This document shows positions 22,367-60,407 of a stretch of 64,000 nucleotides of DNA, piece after piece; the stretch's first letter is position 1; each line of letters opens with the position of its first letter. The notes under the pieces were generated by a model that worked only from the letters and a program-made list of their open reading frames with translations, searched no databases and was not told the origin of the DNA. The stretch comes from an uncultured Lachnospiraceae bacterium. GTDB lineage: Bacteria; Bacillota; Clostridia; Oscillospirales; CAG-272. The translations under genes and the position numbers were made by a program. The stretch covers positions 2,046 to 66,045 of the forward strand of contig CAZVPD010000003.1 of NCBI GenBank assembly GCA_964628455.1. The letters are read 5' to 3'.

Positions 22367-23278
22367 ATGAAAAAACTTGCTGGAACTTTCTTCGTCCTTG
22401 CAGCCGGGTGCCTCTGGGGTACGGTAGGCATCTTTGTCCGCAGACTTTCCGAAACCGGCATGACCTCCATACAGATCGCGGCTGTGCGGATTTTTGTCAC
22501 GGCGATTGTTTTGTCTTCGGGGCTCCTGCTTTTTAACAGGAGGCTTCTTCGTATCCGCTTTCGTCATATCTGGTGCTTTCTCGGAACAGGACTGGTCAGC
22601 ATCGTGGTTTTTACATACTGCTATTTCCGGACGATAGAAGAGGTATCTCTTTCCGCAGCTGCGGTTCTGCTTTATATGGCTCCGGCCATGGTCATGCTGA
22701 TGAGTGCGCTTTTGTTCCGCGAAAAAATTACATTGATTAAAACAGCCGCCTGCCTTCTGGCACTGGGTGGCTGTGTTCTCGTCACCGGAATCATAGGCAG
22801 CGGAGACAGAATACCTGCCGCCGCCATCATCAGCGGACTGTTATCGGCTCTGGGTTACGCTCTGTACAGCATTTTCGGACGATACGCTATAAATTACGGA
22901 TATCACCCGCTCACTATTGCCTCTTATACTTTTATCTTTGCCTGTTTGGGAATACTGCCGCTGTTCGGACTGCGGGATTTTACAACAAAAATCGTTTCAG
23001 GTGACCTTTTGCCCGATATCTCCCGGATATTGTACGGTATACTGTTCGGTCTGATTACCGCGGCCCTGCCGTATGTGCTCTATACGGCAGGCCTTGCAAA
23101 AACAGAATCGGGCAGGGCTTCTGTCATGGCTTCGGTGGAACCTGTAGTCGCAACCCTTGCAGGCGCTGCGGTTTTCGGTGAAAAACTCACACCGGAGGGT
23201 GTGGCCGGCATAATGCTTGTAGTTTTCGCGGTGATCCTGATGAACGTCAAAAACAAAGCACGCAATAAAAAACTATAA
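22367..23278 (+). CDS. EamA/DMT superfamily transporter
   Basis: 303 aa, about 10 predicted TM segments in two EamA halves. Weak RBS. Confidence 0.8.
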   Translation: MKKLAGTFFVLAAGCLWGTVGIFVRRLSETGMTSIQIAAVRIFVTAIVLSSGLLLFNRRLLRIRFRHIWCFLGTGLVSIVVFTYCYFRTIEEVSLSAAAVLLYMAPAMVMLMSALLFREKITLIKTAACLLALGGCVLVTGIIGSGDRIPAAAIISGLLSALGYALYSIFGRYAINYGYHPLTIASYTFIFACLGILPLFGLRDFTTKIVSGDLLPDISRILYGILFGLITAALPYVLYTAGLAKTESGRASVMASVEPVVATLAGAAVFGEKLTPEGVAGIMLVVFAVILMNVKNKARNKKL

Positions 23279-24425: not shown

Positions 24426-25178
24426 TCAAGGGCGTTTCGCAAATCTGTAGATAAAAAGCAGGGCCGTTACAACAGCCGAACCGGCGCCGATAACCACGGC
24501 GCTGCGTGCGGTAAGTTCCGGTCCGGAACCTGCCGCTGAACCGGCCGTCTCTTCCGTTACGGTGACAGCCGTTTCGGCAGATGAGGTTTCGGGTTCGGCA
24601 GTGCCGGCCGTATCAGCCCCGGTTTCGGCAGCCGTCGCGGCAAATGCCGCCGTCGTGACCGCGTTTGCCGCAGACGTCTGCGCCGGAACCGCAGCCGGAG
24701 CCGCTTTTTGGGGCTTAATGGTTTCGGGTGGGTTTAGTGCTACGGTCACCCTCGCCACACCCTTATCCTGAGGTTCTCTCAGGATGATCAAAGGCGCACG
24801 GGTTTCCTGCCAGATGGTTTCGGGAGGCGGAACGGTTTCACGAGCGGTCTCCGGTTCGGTAACTCCGGCTGTCGTTTCGGCCGGAACCGGTACGGTCGTT
24901 TCGGCCGGAGGAACGGTCACCGGTTCGGTTTCCGCCGTTTCTCCGGTGGTTTCCTCAACGGGCGGCAGCAGAGTCGTTTCCGGCTCCGTTTCGGTTTCCG
25001 TTTCGGTTTCCTGTTCTGTCGTTGTCTCGGGTTTCGGTATGTCAATGACCTTGACCGTTGTTTCCGGTTCGGTTTCGGCCGGCGGAGGGACGTCCTGCTC
25101 GGCGCTTATGCGAACATAGGACATTGTATAAAGCACAATCAGGATAGAAAGCAAAAATACTGAGGCTGTTTTTTTCAT
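24426..25178 (-). CDS. secreted/anchored T-E-P-rich low-complexity protein
   Basis: 250 aa. N-terminal signal-like MKKTASVFLLSILIVLYTM. A long ETEPETT/PAETT-rich region. C-terminal hydrophobic segment plus basic tail (VVTALLFIYRFAKRP). Confidence 0.6.
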   Translation of the reverse strand: MKKTASVFLLSILIVLYTMSYVRISAEQDVPPPAETEPETTVKVIDIPKPETTTEQETETETETEPETTLLPPVEETTGETAETEPVTVPPAETTVPVPAETTAGVTEPETARETVPPPETIWQETRAPLIILREPQDKGVARVTVALNPPETIKPQKAAPAAVPAQTSAANAVTTAAFAATAAETGADTAGTAEPETSSAETAVTVTEETAGSAAGSGPELTARSAVVIGAGSAVVTALLFIYRFAKRP

Positions 25179-26617: not shown

Positions 26618-27457
26618 ATGGAAACCGAAACAAAAAAGTCTGCTGCTCCAAAGCTGTTTTTCATCCTGACTTTATTGGCATCAGCGGCGGCGGCGCTGAT
26701 ACAGGCATTTCTTTTTACCTCGAATTATGACGAAAAGCTCAATCTTTATCATACAGGCACTTTTTTACCCTTGGTTTTTTATATTGCCGTATTTGCTGCT
26801 GCGCTTTTCTGCGCCTCTTCCTATTTTATAACGAAAAACAACACCGTCATGAAAATACTGCCCGCTCCCGGCCGTTTTGTTGTCTTCACTGCGATATTGG
26901 GCGGATTACAACTCGGTGCAGCTGTTCTGTTTAATATATACTACTATGTGACGGGAGTATATTCCGGTATGACATCTCTGCGCGCCGCTGTTTTTATAAC
27001 CGCCGTTCCGGCAGCCGTTTATTTTATAATCACGGCGCTGACCGGAAATCCGAAAAAAAACATACTTATAATATGCGGATTTTTTACCGTGATCTGGGCG
27101 GCGCTTTACCTCATGTGTATTTATTTCGACATGTCGTCTCCCTTAAACAGCCCTGTGCGTATCCTGAATCAGCTTTCGCTGATTACGGTTATGCTTTATT
27201 TTATATTTGAATTGCGATATCTGCTCGATAAGCCCCGGCCGCGCTTTTATCTGCCGGCATCGCTGCTCGCAATCCTTTTCATCTCGCTGTCTTCCGTTTC
27301 CGACCTGATCCTGACTTTTACCGGATTCCGTTCTTCCACGCAGGACACCGTATTCCGTATAGCCGAAGCTGCCATCATGCTTTATATCACCGCCCGGCTC
27401 AGCAGCGTTTTGATGAACCGGAAAACACCTCCGGCGGAGCAGCGCCTGGAAGAATGA
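26618..27457 (+). CDS. hypothetical multi-pass membrane protein
   Basis: 279 aa, GGAAGG RBS, about 7 hydrophobic segments. No family motif recognised, including no ABC permease EAA loop. Confidence 0.55.
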   Translation: METETKKSAAPKLFFILTLLASAAAALIQAFLFTSNYDEKLNLYHTGTFLPLVFYIAVFAAALFCASSYFITKNNTVMKILPAPGRFVVFTAILGGLQLGAAVLFNIYYYVTGVYSGMTSLRAAVFITAVPAAVYFIITALTGNPKKNILIICGFFTVIWAALYLMCIYFDMSSPLNSPVRILNQLSLITVMLYFIFELRYLLDKPRPRFYLPASLLAILFISLSSVSDLILTFTGFRSSTQDTVFRIAEAAIMLYITARLSSVLMNRKTPPAEQRLEE

Positions 27458-27625: not shown

Positions 27626-28393
27626 TTATACCGCCACAACCGTCACACCCGCCCCGCGAAGATCCGAAAGATGGTCGGGCGAAGCGCTCGAATTTGTCAC
27701 GATACAATCGGCACAGGTTACGGGAGCTATGTCGGCAAACGCGACGCGTCCGATTTTCGAGTAGTCGGCGGCAATAATAACCGAAGCGGACTGCGCTATC
27801 ATGCGCCTCGATATTTCGGTTTCATTGGCATAATACAGGGTCAGACCGCATTCGCGGTCGATTCCGTCCACCGAAAGCACCAGTTTGTCCGCATGATAGC
27901 AGGACAGCTGACGAAGTGCGTCGTCTCCGTAAGTGAAAAGGAATTTGGGATTGATGAGACCTCCCAGAAGCATGACATTAAAACTTTTATAGGTGGAGGC
28001 TTCCGCTGCGATGGGAAGAGAATTTGTAACCAGAGTCAGATTATGCCTGTTGCGGAGGGCACGCAGCACATAGGTCATGGTGGTTCCCGAATTAAGCATG
28101 ATACTGTCGTTGTCGTGTATCATGGAGGCGACCCTTTCGGCGATAATCTTTTTTTCGGTTTCGTTTGCCGAAAGACGCTCTTTCAGGTCCATCTCATGGT
28201 ATAGCTTGGACGAACTGACGGCACCGCCGTGCACCCTTGACAGCAGTCCCTGAAGGGACAGAAATTCCAGATCTCCCCTCACCGTCACCTCGGAAATACC
28301 GAAGAGGGCACTGAGACTGCTCACCCTGACTTCTCCTTTTTCCCCGAGAAGTTCCAGTATTTTTTCCCGCCGCTGGTCCGCGTTATATTCCAT
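27626..28393 (-). CDS. DeoR/GlpR family transcriptional regulator
   Basis: ORF trimmed to ATG 28393. MEYNADQRREKILELLGEKGEVRVSSLSALFGISEVTVRGDLEFL winged HTH plus a DeoR C-terminal effector domain. Confidence 0.85.
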   Translation of the reverse strand: MEYNADQRREKILELLGEKGEVRVSSLSALFGISEVTVRGDLEFLSLQGLLSRVHGGAVSSSKLYHEMDLKERLSANETEKKIIAERVASMIHDNDSIMLNSGTTMTYVLRALRNRHNLTLVTNSLPIAAEASTYKSFNVMLLGGLINPKFLFTYGDDALRQLSCYHADKLVLSVDGIDRECGLTLYYANETEISRRMIAQSASVIIAADYSKIGRVAFADIAPVTCADCIVTNSSASPDHLSDLRGAGVTVVAV

Positions 28394-28458
28394 CACCCAA
28401 TACCCCCGTGTTTTCAGAACGGATGCACTTAGCATAGCATAATCGCCTTATAATTCTG

Positions 28459-28487
28459 TTGACATTTTGTTAATTTTATGCTATAAT
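28459..28487 (+). promoter_or_regulatory. consensus sigma-A type promoter of the nine-gene operon
   Basis: TTGACA (28459-28464), 17-nt spacer, TATAAT (28482-28487). Divergent from the DeoR gene. Confidence 0.6.
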
Positions 28488-35622: not shown

Positions 35623-37131
35623 ATGAAAAGGAGTATCCTGCAGCAGATCATTGTTCTGTTTCTTTGCCTTCTGACTGTCCTGCCCGCACTTTCCTGCGCG
35701 GAAAAAACCGGCACTGTTCCTTCGGATCTGTCAGACACAGCGGCGGCCGAAACGGAACCGCCGGAAGAAACCCGCGCTGTGGCCAATCTGCCGGAAACAG
35801 ATTTCGCGGGAAGAGCTTTCCGGATATTCGGGCGTGAAAATACAACCTATCCGCAATTTACAAACTTCGAATTTTATGCCGAAAGCGAAAACGGAGAGGT
35901 GGTCAACGATGCCGTTTTTGCCCGCAACCGGACAATAGAAGAGAAATATAATATTAAAGTCGAACAGAACCTGCTGGACGACACAACGGGGCATATCAAG
36001 AAAACCGTTACTTCCGCCGATGATGCCTACGATATTGCGGCACTGCATAATTTTACAAGCGTTTCCTCCCTGTCCATGGGCGGATATCTGACCGACTTCA
36101 ATGCAGTAAACAACATCGACTTTTCCATGCCCTGGTGGAATACCGATGTGAATGCCTCGCTTTCATTTGCCGGAAAGCTTTATTATACGACAAGCGACTA
36201 TCTGCTGCTCGATAAGCAGAGGACCTATATTCTGATCTTCAATAAAAAAATCATGGAGGATTATTCCCTGGGAAATTTGTATCAGCTGGCTTTCGACGGC
36301 AAATGGACGACGGACGCCATGCTTTCCATGATCACAAAGGTATCTACCGACCTGGACGGGGACGGCAAGATGACCGATCTTGACATGTACGGCCTCGGGA
36401 TGGATTCGTATCTTTCGTTTTACGTTTTCTATGCGGCGATGGGCGGTACGATGGTGGGCCGCGACGAAAATGACCTGCCGATTCTTGCTATGAACAACGA
36501 ACATAATATCTCCGTCATCGAAAAAGCGATGGCCCTGACCTGCAATACGGATATCGCGTTTTTCTGCAATGATTATAACGGCAAGGTGTCATATGATTTC
36601 TGGTCGGTCATGGGCAATATGTTCAACGCGGGACGCGAACTGTTCATGTCCGCGTTTCCTCATTCGTTAAAAACGATTTCCGCAAATACCGATGTGAATT
36701 TCGATTACGGCGTCATCCCCTTTCCGAAATTCGACGAAGCGCAGGAAAAATATCTCACGGTCCCCGACAACTACCACTCCATGGTACTGACGATCCCCAC
36801 AAGCAACCTCGACACGGACTTCGCTGGATTTATGCTCGAGGCGTTTTCGGCGGAATCCGCTTATACGACGCTGCCGGCCTATTATGAGGTTTCCACCAAA
36901 ACCAAATATACCTACGATGAGGAAAGCGCAAAAATGCTGGATATCATCTTTGACGGCATCACATACGACCTCGGCGCCATCTATGACTGGGGTGCGATCA
37001 ATACGCTGCTCAAGGACACCATCCCCAATAAGAAAGAGAATATTTTCGCATCGGAATACGCCAAACGCGAACCGAAGGCGCTGACTGCCCTGCAGAAAAC
37101 CATCGACGAGTATCTTTTGATCGCGGAATGA
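35623..37131 (+). CDS. extracellular solute-binding lipoprotein, orphan
   Basis: ORF trimmed to ATG 35623 (MKRSILQQIIVLFLCLLTVLPALSC lipobox). Blocks VVNDAVFARN, MPWWN, DLDGDG, IPFPKFDE, LPAYYE, MLDII. Confidence 0.8.
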   Translation: MKRSILQQIIVLFLCLLTVLPALSCAEKTGTVPSDLSDTAAAETEPPEETRAVANLPETDFAGRAFRIFGRENTTYPQFTNFEFYAESENGEVVNDAVFARNRTIEEKYNIKVEQNLLDDTTGHIKKTVTSADDAYDIAALHNFTSVSSLSMGGYLTDFNAVNNIDFSMPWWNTDVNASLSFAGKLYYTTSDYLLLDKQRTYILIFNKKIMEDYSLGNLYQLAFDGKWTTDAMLSMITKVSTDLDGDGKMTDLDMYGLGMDSYLSFYVFYAAMGGTMVGRDENDLPILAMNNEHNISVIEKAMALTCNTDIAFFCNDYNGKVSYDFWSVMGNMFNAGRELFMSAFPHSLKTISANTDVNFDYGVIPFPKFDEAQEKYLTVPDNYHSMVLTIPTSNLDTDFAGFMLEAFSAESAYTTLPAYYEVSTKTKYTYDEESAKMLDIIFDGITYDLGAIYDWGAINTLLKDTIPNKKENIFASEYAKREPKALTALQKTIDEYLLIAE

Positions 37132-37180
37132 CCGGATCTTTCCGGATATTTCAAAGTTCAATAACGAAAGGCTGCCGACT

Positions 37181-38647
37181 ATGAAATCTTCTGTTACCGT
37201 TCGTTTGATCTCTTTGCTTTGTCTGTCTGCCCTGCTGTTTCCGCTGCTTGCATCGTGTTCCGAAGGCGGGGCGGAAGCGACTGAAAGTCTGACCGAAGCC
37301 CTGACCGAGACGCCCGCCACGGAAAAGCCTTTTCTTGACGACCTTCCCTCAGACCTTGACTTTGAAGGCAGGACCATACGCATGGTCACCAACGACAAAG
37401 CTTCCTTCGATACGGTCGAGGATGCCGCCGATGTTGTCGATGTGGAGGTATACAAGAGAAACCGTAAAATCGAAGAGCGGCTTGACATCCTGCTCGAACC
37501 GGTCATTGACGAGAACTGGGGGGTCGCGGCCTCTCTTCTGACCGCAAGCGTGCTTGCCGGAAGCGATGATTACGATCTTTACGGCGGTTATTGCTACTGG
37601 TCAATCGCACTTGCCACTTCCGGCTATATGCTGAATCTGGCAAATATGGAACATCTGAATCTTGAAGCTCCGTATTGGGGAAAAAAGTTTATCGATGCGA
37701 TGGCTTATAAAGACTTCGTTTACTGGGTCACCGGAGACATCGTTTTAAATTATACCAACGGAATCTATGCGACTTATGTCAATCTCGAACAGTGGGACAA
37801 CTATATAGGAGGCATCGATATCTATGACCTGGTGCGCAGCGGCCAATGGACCCTTGACCGCGTAAAAGAATACGCGGAAGCCGCCTACACCGACCTCAAC
37901 GGCAACGGAAAAACGGACGCGGAAGATTTTGTAGGCTATGTTTATACAACGGAAGACCCGATCGACGGCATGGCGATGGCGGCCGGCGTTACTTTCACGG
38001 AATTCGACGAAGACGGCGTCCCCTATATCACGCTGCTCGGAAGCGACAGGGCGGTGACCTTCAATGAAAAACTGACCGCTTTATGCACCAGCCACGCGTC
38101 CCTTCTGACAGCGTCGGACGGCGGTTATTCCTCGGTAAAACTCTTCGGTTCTCTGCATGCCCTGTTTAATATCGGACGGCTGGCTCACGCGGTGACTTTT
38201 CTGCGTGATATGAAAGAAGATTTTGCAATCATCCCGCCGCCGAAACTTGATGAGGCGCAGGAAACCTACCTGACCACCCTCCATGACGGCACCACGATCC
38301 TCGGTATTCCGAAAACCGCGTCCGCCGAAGCGATTGAAGCCGTTTGCGCGACACTTGAAGCTCTTGCTTCGGAAAGCTATAAGTCGCTTACTCCCGTTTA
38401 CCTGGATGTGGCTTTGAAAAACAAATATACCCGGGACGAACAGTCGGCCGAAATGATCGACCTTATCCGTCAGAATATCGTTTCCGACTTCGGGTTTCAA
38501 TACACGGCTACCGGATTCAATAACTTTTTCCGGGCACAGACCAAAAAAGGAGCCGAAGTAGCGTCAACAATAGCTAAAAGCGAAAAGAGCTGGACTGCTG
38601 CGCTCGATAAAATACTGCTGGCACTCGAAGAGAATGCCGGACAATAA
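37181..38647 (+). CDS. extracellular solute-binding lipoprotein, orphan
   Basis: 488 aa. Signal MKSSVTVRLISLLCLSALLFPLLASC. Blocks DLNGNG, IIPPPKLDE, MIDLI. More diverged paralog. Confidence 0.8.
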   Translation: MKSSVTVRLISLLCLSALLFPLLASCSEGGAEATESLTEALTETPATEKPFLDDLPSDLDFEGRTIRMVTNDKASFDTVEDAADVVDVEVYKRNRKIEERLDILLEPVIDENWGVAASLLTASVLAGSDDYDLYGGYCYWSIALATSGYMLNLANMEHLNLEAPYWGKKFIDAMAYKDFVYWVTGDIVLNYTNGIYATYVNLEQWDNYIGGIDIYDLVRSGQWTLDRVKEYAEAAYTDLNGNGKTDAEDFVGYVYTTEDPIDGMAMAAGVTFTEFDEDGVPYITLLGSDRAVTFNEKLTALCTSHASLLTASDGGYSSVKLFGSLHALFNIGRLAHAVTFLRDMKEDFAIIPPPKLDEAQETYLTTLHDGTTILGIPKTASAEAIEAVCATLEALASESYKSLTPVYLDVALKNKYTRDEQSAEMIDLIRQNIVSDFGFQYTATGFNNFFRAQTKKGAEVASTIAKSEKSWTAALDKILLALEENAGQ

Positions 38648-40630: not shown

Positions 40631-40671
40631 AAAAAAGGGCTGCCTTCTGATTTTTAAGGCAGTCCTTTTTT
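40631..40671. terminator. bidirectional rho-independent terminator
   Basis: AAGGGCTGCCTT / AAGGCAGTCCTT 12-bp stem with one mismatch, flanked by an A-run and a T-run, between convergent genes. Confidence 0.7.
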
Positions 40672-40690
40672 GCGGATTCAGACCGCGTTT

Positions 40691-42157
40691 TTATTCCATA
40701 GACTGAATCGTTGTGATAAGTTTGTCGATTGCCGACTGCATCAGTTTTTCTTTTCCGGCAAACATACTCACAACATCGGTTTTCTTGTTCGGATGAAGCC
40801 GCAGAAAGGCTTCGTTAAATCCGCCGAACTGATAAAACTCGCCAAGATCATACACTCTGGTTGAAAATATGATATCCAGCATATCCACCGACTCTTCATC
40901 GCGTGAATATTTATCCCTGAGCACCGTGTCATAATAAGCCGGGATCAGCGTATACCGGGATTCCGCAGCCAGCGCTTCGAGTATAATTCCGGTTCGTTCC
41001 GTATCCGGTGCGGATTTTGGAACAACCATGATTCCCGAAGTGTGGATCGAAACGGAATGTCCGTAATTCTCCTGCGTTTCGCTGAACTTGGGCACGGGAA
41101 GGATTCCGAAATCGCTTTCGATTGACCGGAAGTTCTCTGTGACGGTGATTCTCTCGACATAAAACAGAAATCGGTCTGTTCCCATCATTGTAATCGGAGT
41201 GATGTTTTTATCCGTGATGTTGTCGGTATGCAGGAAGTAGGATGTGTCGTAGATCATCTCGATGATTTTTTCGGCTACGCCGATGGTATGCTCATCGTTG
41301 AAAGCGATGACGGGCAGGTCGTTTTCATCCTTTGAAGCATAGCGCCCCCCGCTGCCGTGCAGGATGATATACGTCCAGTCATCATAAGCCACAATTCCCC
41401 AGATATCCGCTTCATTCATCATTCCGTCGCCGTTGAGGTCCGATACCACGCTTTTCGCAAGTTCCTCCATTTTATCAAGCGTCCATTTGTTTTCATAAAC
41501 CAGGCTGTACAGATTCCCGGCCGAATAATTCTCAGCCACATTTTTGTTGTAATAGATGCACGCCGTGGCTCCCTTGTCCATCAGAGTGATATCGGATTCC
41601 ATCATGAAAAGTCTGCCGTCGATCGACAGTTCGGCCGCAGCCTGAGAGTCCCACCATGGTTTGTCCCAGTCGGCGAATTCAAGTTCATTCAGGTCAAGAA
41701 GCACACCCGCCGAAACAAGCTGCGTGCTTTCGTAAGTCCTGGGAAAGTAAACGTCAAAAGCGTTATCGCCGGCCTGAACGGCTTTTTTACAGACGGAGAT
41801 CAGCTGATTGATTTCGATATATTCACTGGCTATGCTTATTTTATACTTTTCCTCGATTGTCCGGTTGCGTGAATAGACAGCGTCGTTGATCACTTCTCCG
41901 TCCAGAACCTCGGCGTCAAGGTCGGTCAGAATCGTCCAGCCGTCGATGACCCAGTGTGCAATGTTAAACTGATAACCGTCATAATCCGAATCCGGAAGTT
42001 CGGGGTATACGCGGGTATCCTCAGGCTGTGTTTCGACGGCTTCAGACGTCGTCTCCGCAGTCGCTTCCGGAGACGCACCGCCCTCCCCGCAGGCAGCGGC
42101 AGAACAGATGAATGCAGTCAGAATCAGCAGGGCGGCAAAACGGGCGAATAAACTCAT
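40691..42157 (-). CDS. extracellular solute-binding lipoprotein, orphan
   Basis: 488 aa, GGAGGG RBS. Signal MSLFARFAALLILTAFICSAAAC. Blocks VINDAVYSRN, KPWWD, DLNGDG, ILPVPKFSE, IPAYYD, MLDII. Confidence 0.8.
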   Translation of the reverse strand: MSLFARFAALLILTAFICSAAACGEGGASPEATAETTSEAVETQPEDTRVYPELPDSDYDGYQFNIAHWVIDGWTILTDLDAEVLDGEVINDAVYSRNRTIEEKYKISIASEYIEINQLISVCKKAVQAGDNAFDVYFPRTYESTQLVSAGVLLDLNELEFADWDKPWWDSQAAAELSIDGRLFMMESDITLMDKGATACIYYNKNVAENYSAGNLYSLVYENKWTLDKMEELAKSVVSDLNGDGMMNEADIWGIVAYDDWTYIILHGSGGRYASKDENDLPVIAFNDEHTIGVAEKIIEMIYDTSYFLHTDNITDKNITPITMMGTDRFLFYVERITVTENFRSIESDFGILPVPKFSETQENYGHSVSIHTSGIMVVPKSAPDTERTGIILEALAAESRYTLIPAYYDTVLRDKYSRDEESVDMLDIIFSTRVYDLGEFYQFGGFNEAFLRLHPNKKTDVVSMFAGKEKLMQSAIDKLITTIQSME

Positions 42158-42307: not shown

Positions 42308-42336
42308 TTGACATAAACAGAACTTTTATATATAAT
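42308..42336 (+). promoter_or_regulatory. consensus sigma-A type promoter
   Basis: TTGACA (42308-42313), 17-nt spacer, TATAAT (42331-42336), 63 nt upstream of ATG 42400. Confidence 0.6.
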
Positions 42337-45585: not shown

Positions 45586-47775
45586 TTATCGGGACAGCAG
45601 AGCGACGGCGGAGACCGGGTCCGACTGCGCTCTGACCCGAAGCTCACCGGTCTTTTTTTCGATGACGGAGCATATCTCGGCACGGCGGGCTGTGATCTCC
45701 GCAACCATGGAAACAAGCGCGTCTGCTTCGAACAAAGCCACGCCGATATGATACGGCAGACCGTATTCCGCAGCCATCGCGCTGATCTTCATGTCGTAAG
45801 CGAGTCCGATAAAAGGAACGCCGGCGGAAGCGGCATAAATCGCTGCGTGCAGCCGCATGGCTATGATAAAGTTCATATGGCCGAACAATCCCGTAAGTTC
45901 GGAAGCCGATAATCCGCAGATCACCTTTCCGCCCGTTGCCGCCGCAATGCGGTGGCATATGGGCAGGTCTTTTACCGCCTGCATGGGAATGAAAAGGGGA
46001 ATACCCCCGCCGTTCTCCGAAATTTTCAATACGGCTTCGGTCAGCTTCTCTTCAAAGTTCTGCGCCGCATCCTTCCAGTGACGCAGCGCCACCGCGAAAT
46101 AACGTTCGTTCTTCCGGATGTCCTCCCGGTTCATCAGATAATCGGTCCATTCGGAGGCAGCCGGTCTTATGCAGAAAGCCGGATCTGCGGTAACGGCAAT
46201 GTTATTGTTCGTAACTCCTATAGAACGCATTTCTGCAGCGGATCCGTTTTCACGAAGGGTAATCAGGTCGGTTTTATTCAGGATATCACGCGCCGCCCTC
46301 CTGTTTTTCTCTCCTTTCAGAGGACCGATTCCCGATGCGTACATCATAATGCGCAGACCGTATTTTTTTGCGAGCTTCATGATTCCGATATAATACATAA
46401 GGGAGCGTGTGCTCGTTATATTCTGAATAAGGTTTCCGCTTCCGTTGATCAGAAGTTTCGCGTGTTTCAGGGAACGAATGACTGCAAACGGATTAAATCT
46501 GTTGACAGCCCGGATACCGTATCTCTGCGCTGTTTTACGCGGTGATCTGGACAATACCGTTATTTTTATGTCCGGCTGCAGCTGCCGCAGTCCTTCGACG
46601 ATCACAGCCAGCAGCGAATCGTCCCCCGTGTTTCCGAAACCGTAATACCCGCTGATGACAACATCGCCGTATCTATAGAACTCATAGGGGGTAAGCGCTT
46701 CATAGACCGACTCTGCATCGTCCGCCATTTTTTCTATGGTAAAATAACTGTTGACGACAGAACGGTTGTATTCGCCCATTTCGGTTTTTTCCGTGTCGGT
46801 CTTTTCGAAGACCGACAGTATATCCGCCCTGATCAGCTCTTCGGAGGAAGGGATGCAGCCGCGGCAGCAGAAGTTTGTTTCAAGCGCCGTCTGCAGTTTA
46901 TCGGGTCCGAAAACGCCTATGTATCCCTGAGAACCGGCCAGCACTACGGGCAGACCGGCAGCCATGGCTTCGAGTGCGGAGCGCGAAACCCCCAAAAAGA
47001 TCCCGCCTGCGGAGAGCAGGGCATGCACATCGGTGATCGCACCGATCAGACGAACCGATTCCCTGCCGATTTTCCGGTTGATATGATCCGCGGACGCGCC
47101 GAGTTCGCCGATTGCCGTACCGCTGCCGGCGATGATGATTTCTATATCGGGATATCTCTGTGCCAGCGCCTCCGCCGTCTGCACCAGCTGAAAAGCGACA
47201 TGCGCGCTTTCCCGGTCGATTCTGCCGACATAAAGCACGCGGTGTCCGGAGAAAAGTCCCGTTTCCGCATTCCCTCCGCGAAAACGAACGGTATCGATTC
47301 CGTTGATGGTCAGCGTTATATTGTCGGAATTCATATTGTAATGCCGGATCAGATACTGCTTTATATCGCAGCTGACCGCAAGGGCACGCTCGCCCCAGTT
47401 TGAAAAATATCTCCAATACGGAGTGACATTATATACGCCGTGGCAGGTGGTCATAAAGCGGAACCTGAGTTTTTTTGCAAGCAGACCGCATATAAAACCC
47501 GGAATCCGGGCGTGCGCATGCACGATATCGAATTTTTCCCTTTTGATGCACCGATATAATCCCGTATAAGAACGCCATACCGCCGCCGGATTTTTGCTGT
47601 TGAGCGGAAGGGAGATATGACGGACCCCCGCGCTGATGATGTCCTGTACAAAAACACCCCCGTTGGAGGCGACAACGACATCCATACCGCGGCGAACAAG
47701 TTCTTTTGCCAGTTCTACGATATGCGTTTCCGCTCCGCCTATGCCGAGAGACATGGTGGTCATGAGAATTTTCAT
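45586..47775 (-). CDS. fusion protein: GT4-type glycosyltransferase + polysaccharide pyruvyl transferase CsaB
   Basis: 729 aa. N-terminal GT4 (MKILMTTMSLGIGGAETHIVELAKEL; ALEAMAAGLPVV). C-terminal half has VVISGYYGFGNTGDDSLL and NGSGNLIQNITSTRSLMYY, typical of CsaB pyruvyl transferases. Confidence 0.75.
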   Translation of the reverse strand: MKILMTTMSLGIGGAETHIVELAKELVRRGMDVVVASNGGVFVQDIISAGVRHISLPLNSKNPAAVWRSYTGLYRCIKREKFDIVHAHARIPGFICGLLAKKLRFRFMTTCHGVYNVTPYWRYFSNWGERALAVSCDIKQYLIRHYNMNSDNITLTINGIDTVRFRGGNAETGLFSGHRVLYVGRIDRESAHVAFQLVQTAEALAQRYPDIEIIIAGSGTAIGELGASADHINRKIGRESVRLIGAITDVHALLSAGGIFLGVSRSALEAMAAGLPVVLAGSQGYIGVFGPDKLQTALETNFCCRGCIPSSEELIRADILSVFEKTDTEKTEMGEYNRSVVNSYFTIEKMADDAESVYEALTPYEFYRYGDVVISGYYGFGNTGDDSLLAVIVEGLRQLQPDIKITVLSRSPRKTAQRYGIRAVNRFNPFAVIRSLKHAKLLINGSGNLIQNITSTRSLMYYIGIMKLAKKYGLRIMMYASGIGPLKGEKNRRAARDILNKTDLITLRENGSAAEMRSIGVTNNNIAVTADPAFCIRPAASEWTDYLMNREDIRKNERYFAVALRHWKDAAQNFEEKLTEAVLKISENGGGIPLFIPMQAVKDLPICHRIAAATGGKVICGLSASELTGLFGHMNFIIAMRLHAAIYAASAGVPFIGLAYDMKISAMAAEYGLPYHIGVALFEADALVSMVAEITARRAEICSVIEKKTGELRVRAQSDPVSAVALLSR

Positions 47776-47887: not shown

Positions 47888-48787
47888 TTATTGCGGTTCG
47901 GCCGTTTCGGCAGTCGTTTCGGCTGCGGGAGTTTCTGTTTCCGTTTCGGTTGCCGGTTCTGTTTCAACGCGCAGGATTTTGCCGTTTTCAAAATATCCCT
48001 CATATGTCCGTCCGGCAGGCCATTTATAAATTCCCCAGCCGTTCATTTTGTTGTCCGCAAATTCGCCTTCATATACTTCTCCGTTGGCCCATTTGTATAT
48101 TCCCCTGCCGGTGCGGATGTCATTCTGGAATTCTCCTTCGTAAATATCCCCGTTGGCAAAGGTATATACGCCTGTCCCGTGTTTGGTCTCTTCTGCGTAA
48201 GTCCCTTCATAGAACGAGCCGTCAGCCCACGTGTATTTCCCCTTTCCGTCCTTCATGTCGTTTTTAAACTCACCGATATATATCGAGCCGTCAATCCACG
48301 TGTATATTCCGAAACCTTCTTTTTTCCCGTTCAGCAGCTCGCCTTCATACACATCGCCGCTTGAAAAGGTAAATGTTCCCGAACCCGTTATTTCGTCCCG
48401 TACAAAATCTCCTTCATATACGTCTCCCGAAGAATAGGTGATTTTCCCTTTTCCGTGTTTGAGCAGATCTTCCAGTCCGCCTTCGTATATATCGCCGTTT
48501 GAATAGGTCACGGTACCGGCTTCGCTGTCAATCTCGGCGGTTCCCCCGCTTGAAAAATAGAGTCTTCCCGACAAAGGAGAACCCAGGTCGTCAACCCTCC
48601 CGAAAAACTTTACAAAACGGCCGTCTCCGACATCCACTTTCATATAGCGGATTCCGGAAAAATAAATCGCCAAAAAAACCGCTGCGACAAAGATAACCGC
48701 CAGGATAAATGTCACCAGAAGTATAAAAGCCGTGCTGCGGTGCTTTCTTTTACGGCGTACGGGCCGTTGATTTCTTTTGTTTTCCAT
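47888..48787 (-). CDS. membrane-anchored MORN-repeat protein
   Basis: 299 aa. Basic N terminus plus TM (STAFILLVTFILAVIFVAAVFLAIYF). About 8-9 MORN repeats (GDIYEGG, GDVYEGDF, GDVYEGELLNGKKEGFG, GSIYIGEFKNDMKDGKG, GSFYEGTY, GDIYEGEFQNDIRTGRG, GEVYEGEF, GRTYEGYF). T/E-rich tail. Confidence 0.8.
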   Translation of the reverse strand: MENKRNQRPVRRKRKHRSTAFILLVTFILAVIFVAAVFLAIYFSGIRYMKVDVGDGRFVKFFGRVDDLGSPLSGRLYFSSGGTAEIDSEAGTVTYSNGDIYEGGLEDLLKHGKGKITYSSGDVYEGDFVRDEITGSGTFTFSSGDVYEGELLNGKKEGFGIYTWIDGSIYIGEFKNDMKDGKGKYTWADGSFYEGTYAEETKHGTGVYTFANGDIYEGEFQNDIRTGRGIYKWANGEVYEGEFADNKMNGWGIYKWPAGRTYEGYFENGKILRVETEPATETETETPAAETTAETAEPQ

Positions 48788-50761: not shown

Positions 50762-51667
50762 TCACTCTTCATCCGAAAGGCTGTCTCCGCATAGTTTATG
50801 CAGCAGGATTCCAAGATCGTCGTTGTCTTCGTATTCAATGATCAGAGTATTCGGCTTTTGGGGGTTTTTATTGGAAATCCGGATCCTGCGGCCCAGTATA
50901 TTTGTCACTTTCCGCTCCAGCTCGGCATTGTAGTCCACGGACGGCGGTTTTTCGTCTTCCTGTCCGACGACCCTTTTTTTCTCTTCCGTCCGGTTCACAG
51001 ACCGTACCGCTTCTTCGGCAGCGCGTACCGAAAGCCCTTTTTTTAGTATGCTGCCTGCAAGCGTTTCCATATCCTCCCTGTTTTTCAGTCCCAGAAGCGC
51101 CCGTGCATGTCCGGCCGTCAGCTTGTCTTCCGCAACCATATTCAAAACTTTTTCCGGAAGGTCGAAAAGCCGCAGGGAATTGGCAACCGCACTTCGGCTG
51201 CGCCCGATCCGCCTGGATACTTCCTCCTGCGTGAGTCCGTATTCGTCTATTAAAGCACGGTATCCGCCCGCTTCCTCGACCGCATTGAGATTTTCACGCT
51301 GGATGTTTTCGATCAGTGCAAGTTCGGATGCACGCCTGTCGTCGGTATCCATGATGATAACCGGTATTTCGCTCAAACCCGCCATTTTTGCCGCCCGCCA
51401 GCGGCGCTCTCCGGCGATAATCTGGTAAAAGCCGTTCTCGCCTGCTCTCACCGCAATGGGTTGAATGATCCCGTTAGCCGCTATCGAATCGGCAAGCTGC
51501 GAAAGGCTTTCCATGTCGAAATTTTTCCGCGGCTGTCCGGAACGCGGTTCTATGTCGGATATACGAAGCATCGATGTGGTGCCCCGTTCATCTGCGGTAT
51601 TGTCGAGAAAGATGGCGTCAAGTCCGCGTCCGAGTCCGCCGGCTCTCGGTTTCTTTTCGTTTGCCAT
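50762..51667 (-). CDS. parB: ParB/Spo0J chromosome partitioning protein
   Basis: 301 aa. Contains GLGRGLDAIF, ParB box IIQPIAVR..YQIIAGERRWRAAKMAG, and HTH LTQEEVSRRIGRSRSAVANSLRLF. Confidence 0.9.
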   Translation of the reverse strand: MANEKKPRAGGLGRGLDAIFLDNTADERGTTSMLRISDIEPRSGQPRKNFDMESLSQLADSIAANGIIQPIAVRAGENGFYQIIAGERRWRAAKMAGLSEIPVIIMDTDDRRASELALIENIQRENLNAVEEAGGYRALIDEYGLTQEEVSRRIGRSRSAVANSLRLFDLPEKVLNMVAEDKLTAGHARALLGLKNREDMETLAGSILKKGLSVRAAEEAVRSVNRTEEKKRVVGQEDEKPPSVDYNAELERKVTNILGRRIRISNKNPQKPNTLIIEYEDNDDLGILLHKLCGDSLSDEE

Positions 51668-51814
51668 TTTTCCGCTCCTTTATAGGTCAACTGTACCTTC
51701 TGTCCCTTGTATGGAAAGTATAAAAAGCAGCGCTTGCGTTATAGTTTGCGGGGTTCATAACGCTGACCGCCCGGATATATGCCGATTCCCGGTTTTATTT
51801 CATTTAAGAAGGGG

Positions 51815-52576
51815 TCAGATCCGCTCCATGATTTCATCGGCAACGCTGTTGTATGCCTCTGTCCCCTTTGAATGGCGGTCAAAATACTGTATCGGCATAC
51901 CGAATCCCGGCGCTTCACTGAGCCTGACATTGCGCAGTATGGTTGTGGCGAAGAGTTTGCCGGCATAATATTTTTTAAGCTCATCCATCACCTGCAGCGA
52001 CAGATTAAGCCGTCCGTTGTACATGGTAATAAGGATTCCGGTTATGTCAAGAGCCGGATTATATAATTTTTTTACTTGCTTTATCGTAATTAAAAGCTGC
52101 GACAGTCCTTCCAGTGCGTAATATTCGCACTGCATGGGGACAATGACCCCGTCCGCAGCGGTAAGGGCATTTACCGTAAGAATTCCGAGAGAAGGCGGGC
52201 AGTCGATAAAAATATAATCAAATCTGTTTTTTATCGGAGCCAGCGCATTTCTGAGCCTGGTCTCCCTTGCTTCGGAAGAAACCAGTTCGAATTCCGCTCC
52301 GGCAAGCGATATATTAGCCGGCATAATCCATAAGTTTTTATAGCCGGTTTCTACGATAACGCTTTCTGCTCCGGCTCTGTTGATAAGCACGTCATAGGTA
52401 GACAAACGCATGTTTTTTTTGTTGATGCCGACTCCGCTTGAGGTGTTTCCCTGCGGGTCCGAATCGATAAGCAATACGCGCTTTTCTTTTACGCCGATAG
52501 CGGCGGCTATATTCACTGCCGACGTAGTCTTGCCGACGCCGCCTTTCTGATTCGCCAACGCTATGATTTTTGCCAA
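51815..52576 (-). CDS. parA: ParA/Soj chromosome partitioning ATPase
   Basis: TTG start 52576 (GAGAGG RBS 8 nt upstream) gives (M)AKIIALANQKGGVGKTT deviant Walker A and a 253-aa product. The 422-aa ORF in the track is an unsupported upstream extension overlapping rsmG. Confidence 0.9.
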   Translation of the reverse strand: MAKIIALANQKGGVGKTTSAVNIAAAIGVKEKRVLLIDSDPQGNTSSGVGINKKNMRLSTYDVLINRAGAESVIVETGYKNLWIMPANISLAGAEFELVSSEARETRLRNALAPIKNRFDYIFIDCPPSLGILTVNALTAADGVIVPMQCEYYALEGLSQLLITIKQVKKLYNPALDITGILITMYNGRLNLSLQVMDELKKYYAGKLFATTILRNVRLSEAPGFGMPIQYFDRHSKGTEAYNSVADEIMERI

Positions 52577-52679
52577 ATCCGCCGCCTCTCTTCCGTGTTT
52601 TCTGTTTGTTTCACCGGTATCTCGCCGGTATATTAAGGACAGCGTTTTTATTCCCGCACCGCCGTTTATAGTAAAACCA

Positions 52680-52708
52680 ATTATATCAATTATATAGCCT
52701 GTTGTCAA
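52680..52708 (-). promoter_or_regulatory. consensus sigma-A type promoter of parA-parB
   Basis: Minus strand TTGACA (52708-52703), 17-nt spacer, TATAAT (52685-52680), about 100 nt upstream of the TTG start. Confidence 0.6.
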
Positions 52709-52793
52709 CGGTTCGGTGACCGAATTTACGTAATTTTCAAACAAACCGGAGATACTGTCTTTGGTATGCCGCGAAAACGTTTTCCCGCCGGAT

Positions 52794-52809
52794 TGTTTCA
52801 CGTGAAACA
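52794..52809. promoter_or_regulatory. parS (ParB/Spo0J binding site), perfect consensus
   Basis: TGTTTCACGTGAAACA, identical to the copy at 45550-45565. Lies in the rsmG-parA spacer, 85 bp upstream of the parA -35 box. Confidence 0.8.
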
Positions 52810-52868
52810 ACAGATCTGTAAATTTACCGGAAGAGGGAGGGAACTGTTTGTCCAGGGGTTCAGGACAT

Positions 52869-52895
52869 AAAAAAATCCCGCTTTTCAGTCGGAAT
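52869..52895 (-). terminator. probable terminator of rsmG
   Basis: Minus strand ATTCCG-actgaaaag-CGGGAT 6-bp stem (one G-U) followed by TTTTTT, starting 3 nt after the rsmG stop. Confidence 0.5.
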
Positions 52896-52898
52896 TTT

Positions 52899-53660
52899 TC
52901 AGAGCGGCTTTTTGTTGATTTGCGAAAATTGACGCGGGTAGTTTTTCGGAGTTGTCCCGGTTTTACGTATGATGACCGTGCATCTTTTTTGTTTTTGTCC
53001 GTCTGCAATGAGAAATCCCTCGCTTTTTTCGATCCGGGTCCCTCCCAGTATCCGGACCGCGTTTTCCGCTTCCCTGATTTCAAGAATGCCTTCCGCGCCC
53101 TTCATGGCAATAAAAACACCGCCGACTGCCGTAAACGGCAGACAAAGTTCGCTGAGAACATTCAGACGCGCGACCGCTCTTGCTGTAACGATTGTAAATC
53201 GTTCTCTGAAAGCCGCTTCATGCGCAGCGCTTTCAGCCCGCCGGTTCAATGTGGTGATATTTGCGATCTGCAGCGAAGATGCTGCCTCATCAATAAACGC
53301 AAGCTTTTTTAAGGTGCTGTCAAGCGCCGTAACCGATACATCGGGACGTGCCGCGGCAATGGGAAGAGAAGGAAATCCCGCGCCGGCGCCCACATCGAGT
53401 ACCGACGCATTCATCGGGATCAGCCTGCAGACAGCCAGGCTGTCTGCAAGATGCTTCGCGATTATATCGGCCGGACGGCGTATGGCCGTCAGGTTTGTAT
53501 GGGCGTTATATTGCAGCAGCAGTTCCGTGAGTAAATACATCCGGCCGGATAAACCGGTATATTCGGCAAGTCCGTTTTCTTTCAGACACGACGTGAAAGC
53601 TTCATTGAACTCGGTTTGACTCATCATGGGGAGATCCCTGCTTTTTGTGTTTTTGGTCAT
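52899..53660 (-). CDS. rsmG: 16S rRNA (guanine527-N7)-methyltransferase RsmG (GidB)
   Basis: 253 aa. Contains HTNLTAIR and SAM-binding LDVGAGAGFPSLPIA. Start uncertain (ATG 53660, 53627 or 53624). Confidence 0.9.
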   Translation of the reverse strand: MTKNTKSRDLPMMSQTEFNEAFTSCLKENGLAEYTGLSGRMYLLTELLLQYNAHTNLTAIRRPADIIAKHLADSLAVCRLIPMNASVLDVGAGAGFPSLPIAAARPDVSVTALDSTLKKLAFIDEAASSLQIANITTLNRRAESAAHEAAFRERFTIVTARAVARLNVLSELCLPFTAVGGVFIAMKGAEGILEIREAENAVRILGGTRIEKSEGFLIADGQKQKRCTVIIRKTGTTPKNYPRQFSQINKKPL

Positions 53661-55684: not shown

Positions 55685-56503
55685 ATGATCAAATTAGGCG
55701 TAAACAGCGTTCTTTTCAAAACCGTTGATTTTGCGACCGCGGCAAGAGCCATACGCAAATGCGGTTTTGACGGAGTTGAAATATCCGGCATACAGGGCAT
55801 GTGCGAACATCTGAATTTAGCTTCCTGGAAACAGGACAAACTGACCCTGCGCGCCATATCCGATGAAAACGAACTCCCCTTCCTTTCAACGGAACTGGCT
55901 ACCCTTGACCGGGAAAGACTTCTCCTCGCTTTTGAAGCCTGTGCCGAGATCGGGATCCCGATCGTGAATGTGGGACCGGGCGGCAAGTCGGGCGATGAGG
56001 AATCCTTAAAAGTGTCTGTCGAAACAATAGCCGCAAGGGCAGAAGACGCCGCTCAGTTCGGTATCATTCTGTGCTGCAAGGCGCATGTCGGATCTTCCGT
56101 ATACAATACGCCTACCACTCTGGCTTTGACGGAAGCTGTAAATCACCCGAACTTCGGCGTCGATATGGATCCGTCGCATATTTTCCGCGCGGGCGAAAAT
56201 CCTGCCGAGGCTCTTCCCGCTGTTATTTCCCGCGTGAAGCATATTCACATCCGCGACTGCAAAGGCCCCGGCCCGAGTCCGGGAACTCCTCAGCTGCAGG
56301 CATGCGGACGTGGCGACATCGACCTCGCCGGATATTTCCGTGCCATGGTGGAAGCCGATTATGACGGACCGGTAAGTCTTGAGGTGATAGGTCCGGACCA
56401 GGATTTACAGGCCGCTTCCATCATCGCCGCAGAAAGTTACGGTTATATGAACGCGATCCTCAAATCTCTCGGAAGAACGGCAAAACTCGTCAGAGGCAGA
56501 TAA
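55685..56503 (+). CDS. sugar phosphate isomerase/epimerase (xylose isomerase-like TIM barrel)
   Basis: 272 aa, AAGGAG RBS. Contains GFDGVEISG, VDMDPSHIFRAGE, HIHIRDCKG, SLEVIG. Confidence 0.8.
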   Translation: MIKLGVNSVLFKTVDFATAARAIRKCGFDGVEISGIQGMCEHLNLASWKQDKLTLRAISDENELPFLSTELATLDRERLLLAFEACAEIGIPIVNVGPGGKSGDEESLKVSVETIAARAEDAAQFGIILCCKAHVGSSVYNTPTTLALTEAVNHPNFGVDMDPSHIFRAGENPAEALPAVISRVKHIHIRDCKGPGPSPGTPQLQACGRGDIDLAGYFRAMVEADYDGPVSLEVIGPDQDLQAASIIAAESYGYMNAILKSLGRTAKLVRGR

Positions 56504-56564
56504 GGCGGATTCATACGGCTTATAATCCGGCATGTCTTGAAATTTATTATAAGGAGTATTGAAA

Positions 56565-57653
56565 ATGGCAAAGAAATTAAGGATCGGTATCATCGGAACA
56601 GGCGGAATAGCGCATGCCCATGCCGGCGCTTACAAGCGTTTTGAGGATGTTGAGGTTGTTGCGGGCGCGGACATCATTCCCGATAAGGCAAGGAAATTTC
56701 TTGACGAATTCGGCTGGGAGAAAGCCGATGCTTATGAGACCCACGAAGAACTCTGCGCACGCAAAGACATCGATGCCGTATCCGTGTGTACCTATAACTC
56801 GACGCATTCGGTCTGCGCCGTAGCGGCACTCGAATCGGGAAAACATGTATTGCTTGAGAAACCCATGGCGATCACGATAGAACAGGGCCTTGACATTGTC
56901 CGCGCCGAAAAAAAGAGCGGTAAAATCGTCACGATCGGATTTCAGCCCCGTTACGGCCAGAACTATAAACGCGTGAAAGAAATCATCTCATCGGGAGCCC
57001 TGGGAGATATTTATTATGTTCAGACCGGCGGCGGCCGCCGCCGCGGTATTCCCGGAGGAACATTTATAGATAAAACCAAAGCAGGCGTGGGTGCTCTTGC
57101 CGACATCGGCTGTTATGCTCTTGATTTTGCGTTGAATTCCATCGGCTATCCCCGCCCGCTGACGGTTTCCGCGGTAGCACTTGACCATTTCGGAAAAAAC
57201 CCGAAATATTACGGCAATCCCGACGCCTTTTCGGTCGATGACTTCTCCGCAGCCTTTATCCGTCTCGAAGGCGGGATCACACTGGACTTCCGCATGACCT
57301 GGGCAATGCATATGGACACGACCGGAGATTTCATCTTCCTCGGCAAGGAAGCGGGACTCAAAGTCAAACAGCCTAACCTCGAACTCTGGGGAGGCGCGTG
57401 GGACGGCACCGTCGGCGATATCACGCTGTATCACGATGTCCTCGGCTATCCCACCAGTACTCCGATCCCGATCAACCGCGATGAAAAAGGCGATCTTTTC
57501 GGCTCCAAGGTGCGTGCTTTCGTCGATGCGGTCAAAACAAAAGGTCCGGCGCCCATTCCGACAAGCCAGATTATCTATAACCAGGCTATTATCGACGGCA
57601 TCATCCGTTCGGCAGCCTGCGGTCATGAAGTTGACGTGACTTTTAAAATTTAA
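56565..57653 (+). CDS. Gfo/Idh/MocA family oxidoreductase (tandem paralog A)
   Basis: ATG 56565 (AAGGAG 8 nt upstream). Contains MAKKLRIGIIGTGGIAHAHA and LLEKPMAITI. Confidence 0.85.
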   Translation: MAKKLRIGIIGTGGIAHAHAGAYKRFEDVEVVAGADIIPDKARKFLDEFGWEKADAYETHEELCARKDIDAVSVCTYNSTHSVCAVAALESGKHVLLEKPMAITIEQGLDIVRAEKKSGKIVTIGFQPRYGQNYKRVKEIISSGALGDIYYVQTGGGRRRGIPGGTFIDKTKAGVGALADIGCYALDFALNSIGYPRPLTVSAVALDHFGKNPKYYGNPDAFSVDDFSAAFIRLEGGITLDFRMTWAMHMDTTGDFIFLGKEAGLKVKQPNLELWGGAWDGTVGDITLYHDVLGYPTSTPIPINRDEKGDLFGSKVRAFVDAVKTKGPAPIPTSQIIYNQAIIDGIIRSAACGHEVDVTFKI

Positions 57654-57749
57654 AGCAAAAATATACGTCTTTGCTCTCCGAATCGCCAAGATGTCGGTGT
57701 ATTTCGATTGAAACCGTCTCCCTCTTATTTCAATAAGGAGCAACCCAAC

Positions 57750-58841: not shown

Positions 58842-58888
58842 AATCCTGTTTTAAAAAATCATAAAAAAAACAAAAGGAGAAATAAACA

Positions 58889-60280: not shown

Positions 60281-60315
60281 AATCACAGGATTCCGGACAG
60301 TTCCGGAAAAGTTCG

Positions 60316-60378: not shown

Positions 60379-60407
60379 TGATTTTATATTAAGGAAGGCA
60401 AAAAATC

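Follow-up and report, generated by a model that had tools for sequence, protein, structure and literature searches.

Five paralogous lipoproteins with a solute-binding-type fold belong to a large clostridial family encoded apart from ABC permeases and are candidate receptors for a shared translocator

Some solute-binding proteins (SBPs) of ATP-binding cassette (ABC) importers share a translocator: HisJ and ArgT use HisQMP, and AliA and AliB of S. pneumoniae use AmiCDEF. The receptor gene can also lie apart from the membrane components, as with MppA of E. coli, an orphan SBP for which use of the OppBCDF translocator is established (PMC3173086), and with the LT-SBP homologues of Bifidobacterium, orphans for which a shared permease has been proposed (PMC8110962). 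On a larger scale, B. pertussis has 76 Bug/TctC receptor paralogs, most of them without nearby membrane partners, and a shared distant partner has been proposed (PMC11452294). Among Firmicute sugar importers sharing of the ATPase is the rule, and a lipoproteome survey of a typical Firmicute counted only 2 orphans among 45 SBPs (PMC13068155). Here we describe five paralogous SBP-like lipoproteins encoded in a 64-kb stretch of contig CAZVPD010000003.1 from an uncultured Lachnospiraceae bacterium (the whole of this stretch is referred to below as the window), and the large clostridial family to which they belong, whose sampled members are never found in one operon with an ABC permease or ATPase. 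We consider it probable, at roughly 60%, that the five proteins are substrate-specific receptors feeding a shared CUT1 translocator encoded in trans.

A listing of open reading frames (ORFs) in the window contained five full-length, intact SBP-like lipoprotein paralogs of 486-502 amino acids (aa):

412-1908, minus strand: copy 1 (498 aa, lipobox VIPAC), a single-gene transcription unit downstream of cinA
35623-37131, plus strand: copy 2 (502 aa, lipobox ALSC), the protein used for the structure model
37181-38647, plus strand: copy 3 (488 aa, lipobox LASC), the tandem partner of copy 2, 50 bp further on
40691-42157, minus strand: copy 4 (488 aa, lipobox AAAC), facing the operon end in convergent orientation and with its own promoter
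62351-63811, plus strand: copy 5 (486 aa, lipobox LSAC), 34 bp past an AraC regulator gene

All five ORFs lie where a preliminary description of this DNA had placed them, and they align end to end, with 29-36% identity to copy 1 across the full length and 46 invariant columns, including the lipobox Cys. Each protein begins with a hydrophobic signal peptide, followed by the lipobox Cys, an acidic linker of 30-35 residues rich in T, E, P, and A, and then the conserved blocks, which in the paralog alignment read V[IV]NDAVYxRN, PWW, DLNGDG, IPxPK[FY]DE, PAYYE, and MLDII. This is the architecture that the preliminary description had given for all five; copy 3 is the most divergent paralog, carries PYWG and PVYLD variants, and has its own subfamily of homologs. 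Among full-length relatives a lipobox-like motif was found in 139 of 147, and the lipobox Cys was invariant in alignments A1 (the five paralogs), A2, A5, and A7, as a bacterial lipoprotein should show. Two of the reading frames could be extended upstream of the start we assigned: in copy 1 the longest ORF begins at 1929, the ATG at 1908 being favoured with AGGAG 9 nt upstream, and in copy 2 it begins at 35497, the ATG at 35623 being preceded by a GGGGG ribosome-binding site (RBS). A further feature of the window copies is an invariant DLNGDGxxDxxD loop at about residues 240-255 (e.g., 36340-36390 in copy 2), which resembles the Ca2+ loop of EF-hands and dockerins; the region gave a weak, non-significant family-profile match to a Ruminococcus dockerin and may be an EF-hand-like Ca2+ loop.

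We compared the copies with orthologs in two related loci from the sample described below (loci are cited by L numbers), L091 (85-88% identity) and L092 (96% identity). The ratio of nonsynonymous to synonymous substitution rates (dN/dS) was 0.048 for copy 2, 0.045 for copy 3, 0.029 for copy 4, and, against L092, 0.073 for copy 5, values the same as or lower than those of neighbouring enzyme genes (0.086 for a GH3 and 0.051 for a GH5-like gene), and there were no internal stops in the copies compared. L091 keeps the whole arrangement of the middle of the window, from a DeoR gene through the tandem SBPs and the GH5-like gene to the convergent SBP and a Gfo/TIM pair. Because dN/dS of 0.03-0.07 equals that of the neighbouring enzymes, and because consensus promoters and RBSs are present and the operon is conserved in L091, the SBP genes are judged on sequence criteria to be functional and not pseudogenes; pseudogenisation, which had been raised as a caveat, is excluded by the dN/dS values and the lack of internal stops.

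Curated profiles recognised little of the family. Copy 4 alone passed the Pfam SBP_bac_1 model (score 30.2 bits, gathering threshold 26), copies 1, 2, 3, and 5 had no Pfam match at E ≤ 1 and no NCBIfam match either, and precomputed matches to PF01547 (SBP_bac_1) or PF13416 (SBP_bac_8) were present in a minority of homologs only. The large Firmicute sugar lipoproteins of LplA type, which have DUF3502 at the C-terminus and adjoin the permeases LplB and LplC, presumably resemble the family in size and lifestyle; DUF3502 had no match in the five copies, which have no adjacent permeases. The fold was more informative. AlphaFold2, given 76 family sequences, modelled copy 2 with a predicted local distance difference test score (pLDDT) of 88 and a predicted template modeling (TM) score (pTM) of 0.85, and a Foldseek search of the PDB with this model returned 895 chains at E ≤ 1e-3. 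The top 50 were carbohydrate SBPs, one dinucleotide-binding SBP, or maltose-binding protein fusion constructs, with TM-scores of 0.45-0.55, as hinge differences would lead one to expect. The best structural neighbours (E ~1e-14) were Tlet_1705 and MalE1/2 of Thermotoga, UspC of M. tuberculosis, Lmo0181 of Listeria, AbnE of Geobacillus, CbpB of C. thermocellum, and RafE, and the sole significant sequence match among solved structures, obtained with the 76-sequence profile, was the arabino-oligosaccharide binder AbnE (5.7e-5). The earlier assignment to the family-1 SBPs therefore holds by fold, and by profile for copy 4 alone; given the model, we regard the predicted family-1 (MalE-like) fold as a sound assignment, yet the clade as remote and distinct.

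No BPD_transp_1/2, FecCD, or ABC_tran domain was detected by Pfam in 45 window proteins, and a scan for a Walker-A plus LSGGQ motif in all window ORFs of at least 120 aa gave no match, so the preliminary observation that no ABC permease or ATPase is encoded in these 64 kb stands. The only polytopic membrane proteins in the window were an EamA transporter (22367-23278) and a 279-aa protein with about eight predicted transmembrane helices and no Pfam match (26618-27457), the gene for which adjoins the DeoR gene and is syntenic in L091. We rejected the latter as a general permease partner, since it had 0 homologs in the 79 genome loci examined. A simple explanation would be an ordinary ABC operon cut by the window edge, with its permeases just outside the 64 kb. 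This could apply to copy 1 at most, which lies only 411 bp from the left edge, and the first ~100 residues of the gene to its left look soluble. Copies 2-4 lie mid-window with no permease within 20 kb on either side, and close relatives (L092, L093) have none in the 9.6 kb downstream of copy 5, where they encode Gfo/Idh/MocA, a radical-SAM activase, a glycyl-radical enzyme, a GtaA-like hydrolase, a leucine-rich-repeat protein, a flavin reductase, and Jag. A truncated operon is extremely unlikely on these grounds, and the family-wide survey below makes it more so.

A word-indexed search with copy 4 found >3,000 matches, nearly all of 480-510 aa and from uncultured Clostridia or Eubacteriales, which are annotated as unnamed, "hypothetical," or generically as "extracellular solute-binding protein." A filter-free profile search of 1.84 billion cluster representatives identified 6,694 clusters (at 50% identity) with E ≤ 1e-30, all of them from uncultured Clostridia, and 14,890 with E ≤ 1e-3. 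Single metagenome-assembled genomes carried at least 16, at least 14, and at least 11 copies, as counted within the best 80 loci only; family-rich metagenome-assembled genomes include RGIG1743 (JAFQEJ01), Lab288P3bin93 (WREN01), and GCA_054813225.1. In the literature searched we found nothing specific on the family or on large-scale permease sharing in Clostridia. The concepts of orphan SBPs and of shared translocators are already known, so the finding is not categorically new; what appears to be undescribed so far is a family of sugar-type SBPs that is this large, is systematically encoded apart from permeases, and is spread as specificity modules among catabolic loci.

For the genomic context of the family we drew on 79 loci from GTDB species representatives (copy-4 subfamily as the seed), 80 metagenome loci (copy-3 subfamily as the seed), and a few further individual contigs, in all ~165 partly overlapping loci with ~2.0 Mb and ~290 family genes. 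Transporters were sought by a hydropathy screen, by Pfam searches of candidate membrane proteins, by phmmer with genuine permease and ATPase queries, and by motif scans; a regular expression for the EAA loop was only ~50% sensitive, failing on one of the two permeases in L134, and was not relied on. Across this sample 0 of the ~290 family genes was in an operon with an ABC permease or ATPase. The sole CUT1-like permease pair in the ~2 Mb, in L134, lies 7.1 kb from the nearest family gene, with unrelated genes between. The remaining BPD_transp_1 matches were small modules of a single permease plus ATPase (207-255 aa, an amino-acid-type size) at least 5 kb from family genes, in L016, L089/90/94/96, L127, and L160, and L014 had one Liv-type BPD_transp_2 operon. 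Other transporter families (EamA, MFS, MatE, ECF, FecCD, and ABC exporters) were readily detected in the loci, which indicates that the negative result for permeases is not a failure of detection, and the sensitivity of phmmer was adequate, as the queries picked up a divergent second permease pair at 1e-9 to 1e-11. The factual core of the preliminary description is thus stronger than it was known to be when made, since the absence of cis permeases is a property of the whole family.

The window copies sit instead in or beside enzyme loci, as the preliminary description had said; Pfam places glycosidases, oxidoreductases, and a sulfatase alongside them. The main elements are:

27626-28435, minus strand: DeoR-family repressor (HTH_DeoR and DeoRC), divergent from the nine-gene operon and syntenic in L091
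28570-40620, plus strand: nine-gene operon with copies 2 and 3, from Pfam, gene order kept in L091
42394-44593, plus strand: Gfo/Idh/MocA and xylose-isomerase-like TIM-barrel genes, divergent from copy 4 and syntenic in L001 and L091
55685-61418, plus strand: enzyme set upstream of copy 5, comprising a xylose-isomerase-like TIM barrel, two Gfo/Idh/MocA genes, a sulfatase, and a third Gfo/Idh/MocA gene
61454-62317, plus strand: AraC-family regulator with a cupin sensor domain (AraC_binding, HTH_18, HTH_AraC), directly upstream of copy 5

The operon encodes, in order, a ceramidase-like protein (506 aa), a FucI-like protein (451 aa), GH3, SIS, TIM, and UPF0047/YjbQ proteins, copies 2 and 3 as genes 7 and 8, and a GH5-like protein (650 aa). 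Near copy 1 are GH95, three URO-D-like genes, a nucleoside-hydrolase-like gene, a GH28-like gene, and Gfo/TIM genes. No signal peptide was found in the enzymes neighbouring the window copies (GH3, GH95, GH5-like, sulfatase, Gfo/Idh/MocA, and TIM barrels), from which it follows that their substrates must be imported. Among the 114 non-family genes within 300 bp of a family member, which we took as immediate neighbours, the commonest family was AraC-type regulators (6/114), followed by class-II tRNA synthetases (4/114, reflecting shared synteny), then LacI-type regulators, XRE regulators, GH43, SASA esterases, MFS, and YfhO (3/114 each), and glycyl-radical enzymes and Gfo/Idh/MocA (2/114 each). 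Family genes are also often next to one another (41 adjacent pairs among 167 family genes). EamA, MFS, and YfhO were considered as recurrent membrane partners and rejected, each being too rare and too inconsistent in position.

On this evidence, the five genes would encode membrane-anchored, extracellular receptors for sugars or oligosaccharides with a family-1 (MalE-like, CUT1-type) solute-binding fold, each induced together with its cytoplasmic catabolic-enzyme locus under a DeoR or AraC regulator. A receptor would capture the substrate of its locus outside the cell and hand it to a CUT1-type ABC translocator, made of two permeases and an MsmX/MalK-like ATPase encoded elsewhere in the genome, and one such translocator would be common to many paralogous receptors. 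We infer that the proteins bind sugars and that they dock to a shared translocator, and likewise what that translocator is. If the translocator is shared, specificity would be modular and travel with the catabolic locus, the membrane machine being common to all. The idea that many SBPs feed one transporter encoded elsewhere, already put forward in the preliminary description, is favoured for two reasons: the SBP genes share transcripts with, or adjoin, genes for cytoplasmic glycosidases and oxidoreductases without signal peptides, and the regulators (DeoR, AraC, LacI-type) are one-component cytoplasmic proteins that need an imported inducer; the transporter itself was not found. We regard import through a common translocator as the most economical account of a fold used in ABC delivery, surface anchoring, a substrate needed inside the cell, and the lack of any other uptake system in the loci.

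The same loci bear on three other explanations. The proteins might be surface glycan-binding lipoproteins with no part in transport, a Gram-positive analogue of SusD, uptake proceeding by an unrelated route, and the family-wide lack of cis permeases, the four of five copies that fall below the SBP profile cutoffs, and a long flexible acidic linker that pushes the domain away from the membrane would all suit such a role. However, no secreted or cell-surface glycosidase lies alongside in the window, where all the enzymes are cytoplasmic, no sugar transporter of the phosphotransferase system (PTS), MFS, or SSS type is consistently nearby (MFS being the 3/114 given above), and the fold found by Foldseek is that of the closed-cleft receptors of ABC importers and not of a lectin. 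Surface glycan capture, which the preliminary description had offered as its other possibility, therefore explains less, leaving the cytoplasmic enzymes and the lack of a consistently linked alternative transporter unaccounted for, and we consider it unlikely.

Since SBPs are known to double as sensors (PMC8050422, PMC10384115) and regulator genes are the commonest neighbours of the family, the proteins might instead sense ligands outside the cell and pass the signal on through a membrane protein, in the manner of ChvE-VirA or CuaD-CuaSR. However, the adjacent regulators are soluble one-component proteins (AraC-cupin, DeoR, LacI-type), and HisKA, HATPase_c, Response_reg, and MCP were absent from the families seen at least twice among the 114 neighbours and from the surroundings of the five window copies. 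The earlier suggestion of sensor proteins thus found no support in kinases, response regulators, or chemoreceptors, and we think it very unlikely.

A third possibility is that the lipoproteins are accessory factors of cell-envelope glycosylation or of another membrane machine, acting for example with GT-C enzymes such as YfhO. A gene for YfhO, a GT-C glycosyltransferase, is directly downstream of the three closest copy-4 orthologs (L007:11538-14285, L008:9623-12331, and L009:11600-14281) and 1.3 kb from a family member in another locus (L002:5439-8627), and a DUF2079 gene lies 8 kb from a member in L003. However, these cases amount to only ~4 of 167 members, in two lineages, the five window copies have no such neighbour, and most members lie in catabolic loci, so that an envelope role is highly unlikely. 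In L007-L009 there are also two large fused ABC exporters upstream.

Returning to import through a shared translocator, carriers of the family do hold the parts that it would need in trans, namely a solo ATPase of MalK/MsmX type and a CUT1-like permease pair. The ATPase (379 aa, with ABC_tran, OB_MalK, and TOBE_2) is encoded without permeases in three loci (L097:2709-3848, L098:12649-13788, and L099:12296-13435), where it is 1.3 kb away from, and convergent with, a copy-3-like family gene, a proximity that is probably incidental. The permease pair, in L134, where the distance to two family genes is alternatively put at 4-7 kb, belongs to an operon conserved in two loci (L134:783-5863 and L174:6887-19135) that encodes an SBP of ~1,000 aa with an N-terminal region resembling a carbohydrate-binding module, permeases of 319 and 290 aa, a Yip1/NHL protein of 709 aa, a DUF5696 protein of 1,016 aa, and a second permease pair of 327 and 357 aa with no recognisable SBP; it encodes no ATPase. 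The first permease is remarkably well conserved, the 120 best database clusters being 75-99% identical over the full length. It is tempting to speculate that this operon is the shared translocator hub, its link to the family being neighbourhood on one contig.

Several observations weigh against the reading we prefer. A hub would predict that some family members lie beside it, and none of the ~290 family genes shares a permease operon; the L134 pair is moreover preceded by its own, unrelated binding protein of 1,043 aa, and no docking partner for the window's organism was found within the 64 kb. Sequence identity to the structural neighbours is only 13-16%, no curated SBP profile recognises four of the five copies, and the many invariant polar residues in the family could reflect a conserved partner or another kind of ligand. 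Residues invariant across the family include, in the numbering of copy 2, R101, N102, W171, W172, D173, K369, E406, E411, R431, and D432. The loci are, in addition, a non-random sample, being the best 80 matches to each of two subfamilies, with partial overlap. We therefore keep in view, as a doubtful but appreciable possibility, a picture that would depart further from described systems, in which either the family is not an ABC component at all but a hitherto unrecognised class of SBP-fold surface lipoproteins of monoderms, for stand-alone glycan capture or with a non-ABC partner, or, if the proteins do dock to one hub, dozens of substrate specificities pass through one highly conserved set of permeases ("one engine, many adaptors") in a way undescribed for sugar ABC systems.

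The scale and consistency of the orphan status would surprise a specialist and make a concrete hypothesis testable. The family is carried by abundant, uncultured Clostridia of gut, rumen, termites, and digesters, whose carbohydrate uptake is read from annotation; with at least 10 copies per genome, tied to glycosidase and oxidoreductase loci, it is probably a major determinant of which glycans they take up. If many receptors share one translocator, counts of permease operons underestimate substrate range, locus-based prediction of Gram-positive polysaccharide utilization loci ("PULs") must admit SBP-only loci, and the conserved translocator is a single point of control.

Several other features of the window deserve mention. 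Three perfect or near-perfect sigma-70 promoters fall exactly in the intergenic regions before the operon, copy 4, and the Gfo/TIM pair: TTGACA-17-TATAAT, a perfect 12/12 match, at 28459-28487 before the operon, a promoter-like site for copy 4 at 42219-42191 (11/12 positions plus TG), and another perfect consensus (12/12) at 42308-42336 before the divergent pair. A terminator-like hairpin (40671-40687) lies past the end of the operon. The copy 5 locus (55685-63811) is extended in relatives by a further Gfo gene and a glycyl-radical enzyme with its activase (L093:3941-8262), and is possibly a pathway for a sulfated sugar. The three URO-D-like paralogs near copy 1 (uroporphyrinogen decarboxylase or methyltransferase-like; 4150-5229, 8534-9547, and 9665-10864) are clustered with the GH95 gene (6183-8537) and the nucleoside-hydrolase-like gene (5245-6132), and such genes recur near family members in other loci. 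At 15641-16654 is a GGGtGRT protein (PF14057, E 4e-191) whose neighbour (16675-17388) encodes 237 aa with a weak NifU-like match, an uncharacterised conserved pair, and at 24426-25178 is a secreted protein of 250 aa that is almost all T/E/P/A-rich low-complexity sequence, with a C-terminal hydrophobic anchor and no Pfam match. A GT4 glycosyltransferase fused to a polysaccharide pyruvyl transferase (45586-47775, 729 aa) lies beside a membrane-anchored MORN-repeat protein (47888-48787). Finally, parB, parA, and rsmG (gidB) are at 50762-53660, and jag is just past the right end in relatives (L093:12080-12859), which puts the region close to the chromosomal replication origin.

Compared with the described family-1 (cluster D/CUT1) SBPs, such as AbnE (6RJY), CbpB (7X0I), MalE1/2 of Thermotoga, UspC, and Lmo0181, the present proteins have the same two-lobe MalE-like fold, are likewise lipoprotein-anchored as in monoderms and likewise in sugar-catabolic loci, and have the typical motif positions (P-x-W-D ... 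G-K-L-Y and G-[IV]-x-P-x-P-K). They differ in their greater length (by ~100 aa), in an insertion that follows strand 1, and in the DLNGDG loop, and, whereas those SBPs adjoin their two permeases, the present family does not. As in ChvE-VirA and in CuaD-CuaSR of Ruminiclostridium cellulolyticum, the SBP lies away from a transporter and beside regulators (PMC10384115, PMC8050422); however, those SBPs adjoin membrane histidine kinases and ours adjoin cytoplasmic one-component regulators. The principle of a common component is also that of the multitask ATPases MsmX and MsmK, and one lineage with the family encodes a stand-alone ATPase of MalK type, but in the MsmX and MsmK systems the ATPase alone is shared and each SBP has its own permease pair, whereas here we propose that the permeases are shared too.

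The orphans of MppA and LT-SBP type show the same split of the receptor gene from the membrane components and a use, proposed or demonstrated, of one translocator by several receptors. They are, however, one to few extra receptors whose closest paralog is still in a full operon, whereas the present family runs to thousands of clusters and to at least 11-16 copies in a genome, and in our sample has no member in a full operon. In scale the closest analogue is the Bug/TctC expansion, which combines the same massive multiplication of receptors with no partner nearby and a frequent position beside regulators or catabolic genes (PMC11452294). Bug proteins are of a different fold subfamily, serve secondary tripartite tricarboxylate transporters (TTT) and not ABC importers, and are periplasmic, carboxylate-binding proteins of Proteobacteria, whereas the proteins described here are lipid-anchored and presumed to bind sugars. 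The clostridial family would thus be a sugar-ABC counterpart to the long-unresolved orphan-receptor problem of the Bug/TTT systems.

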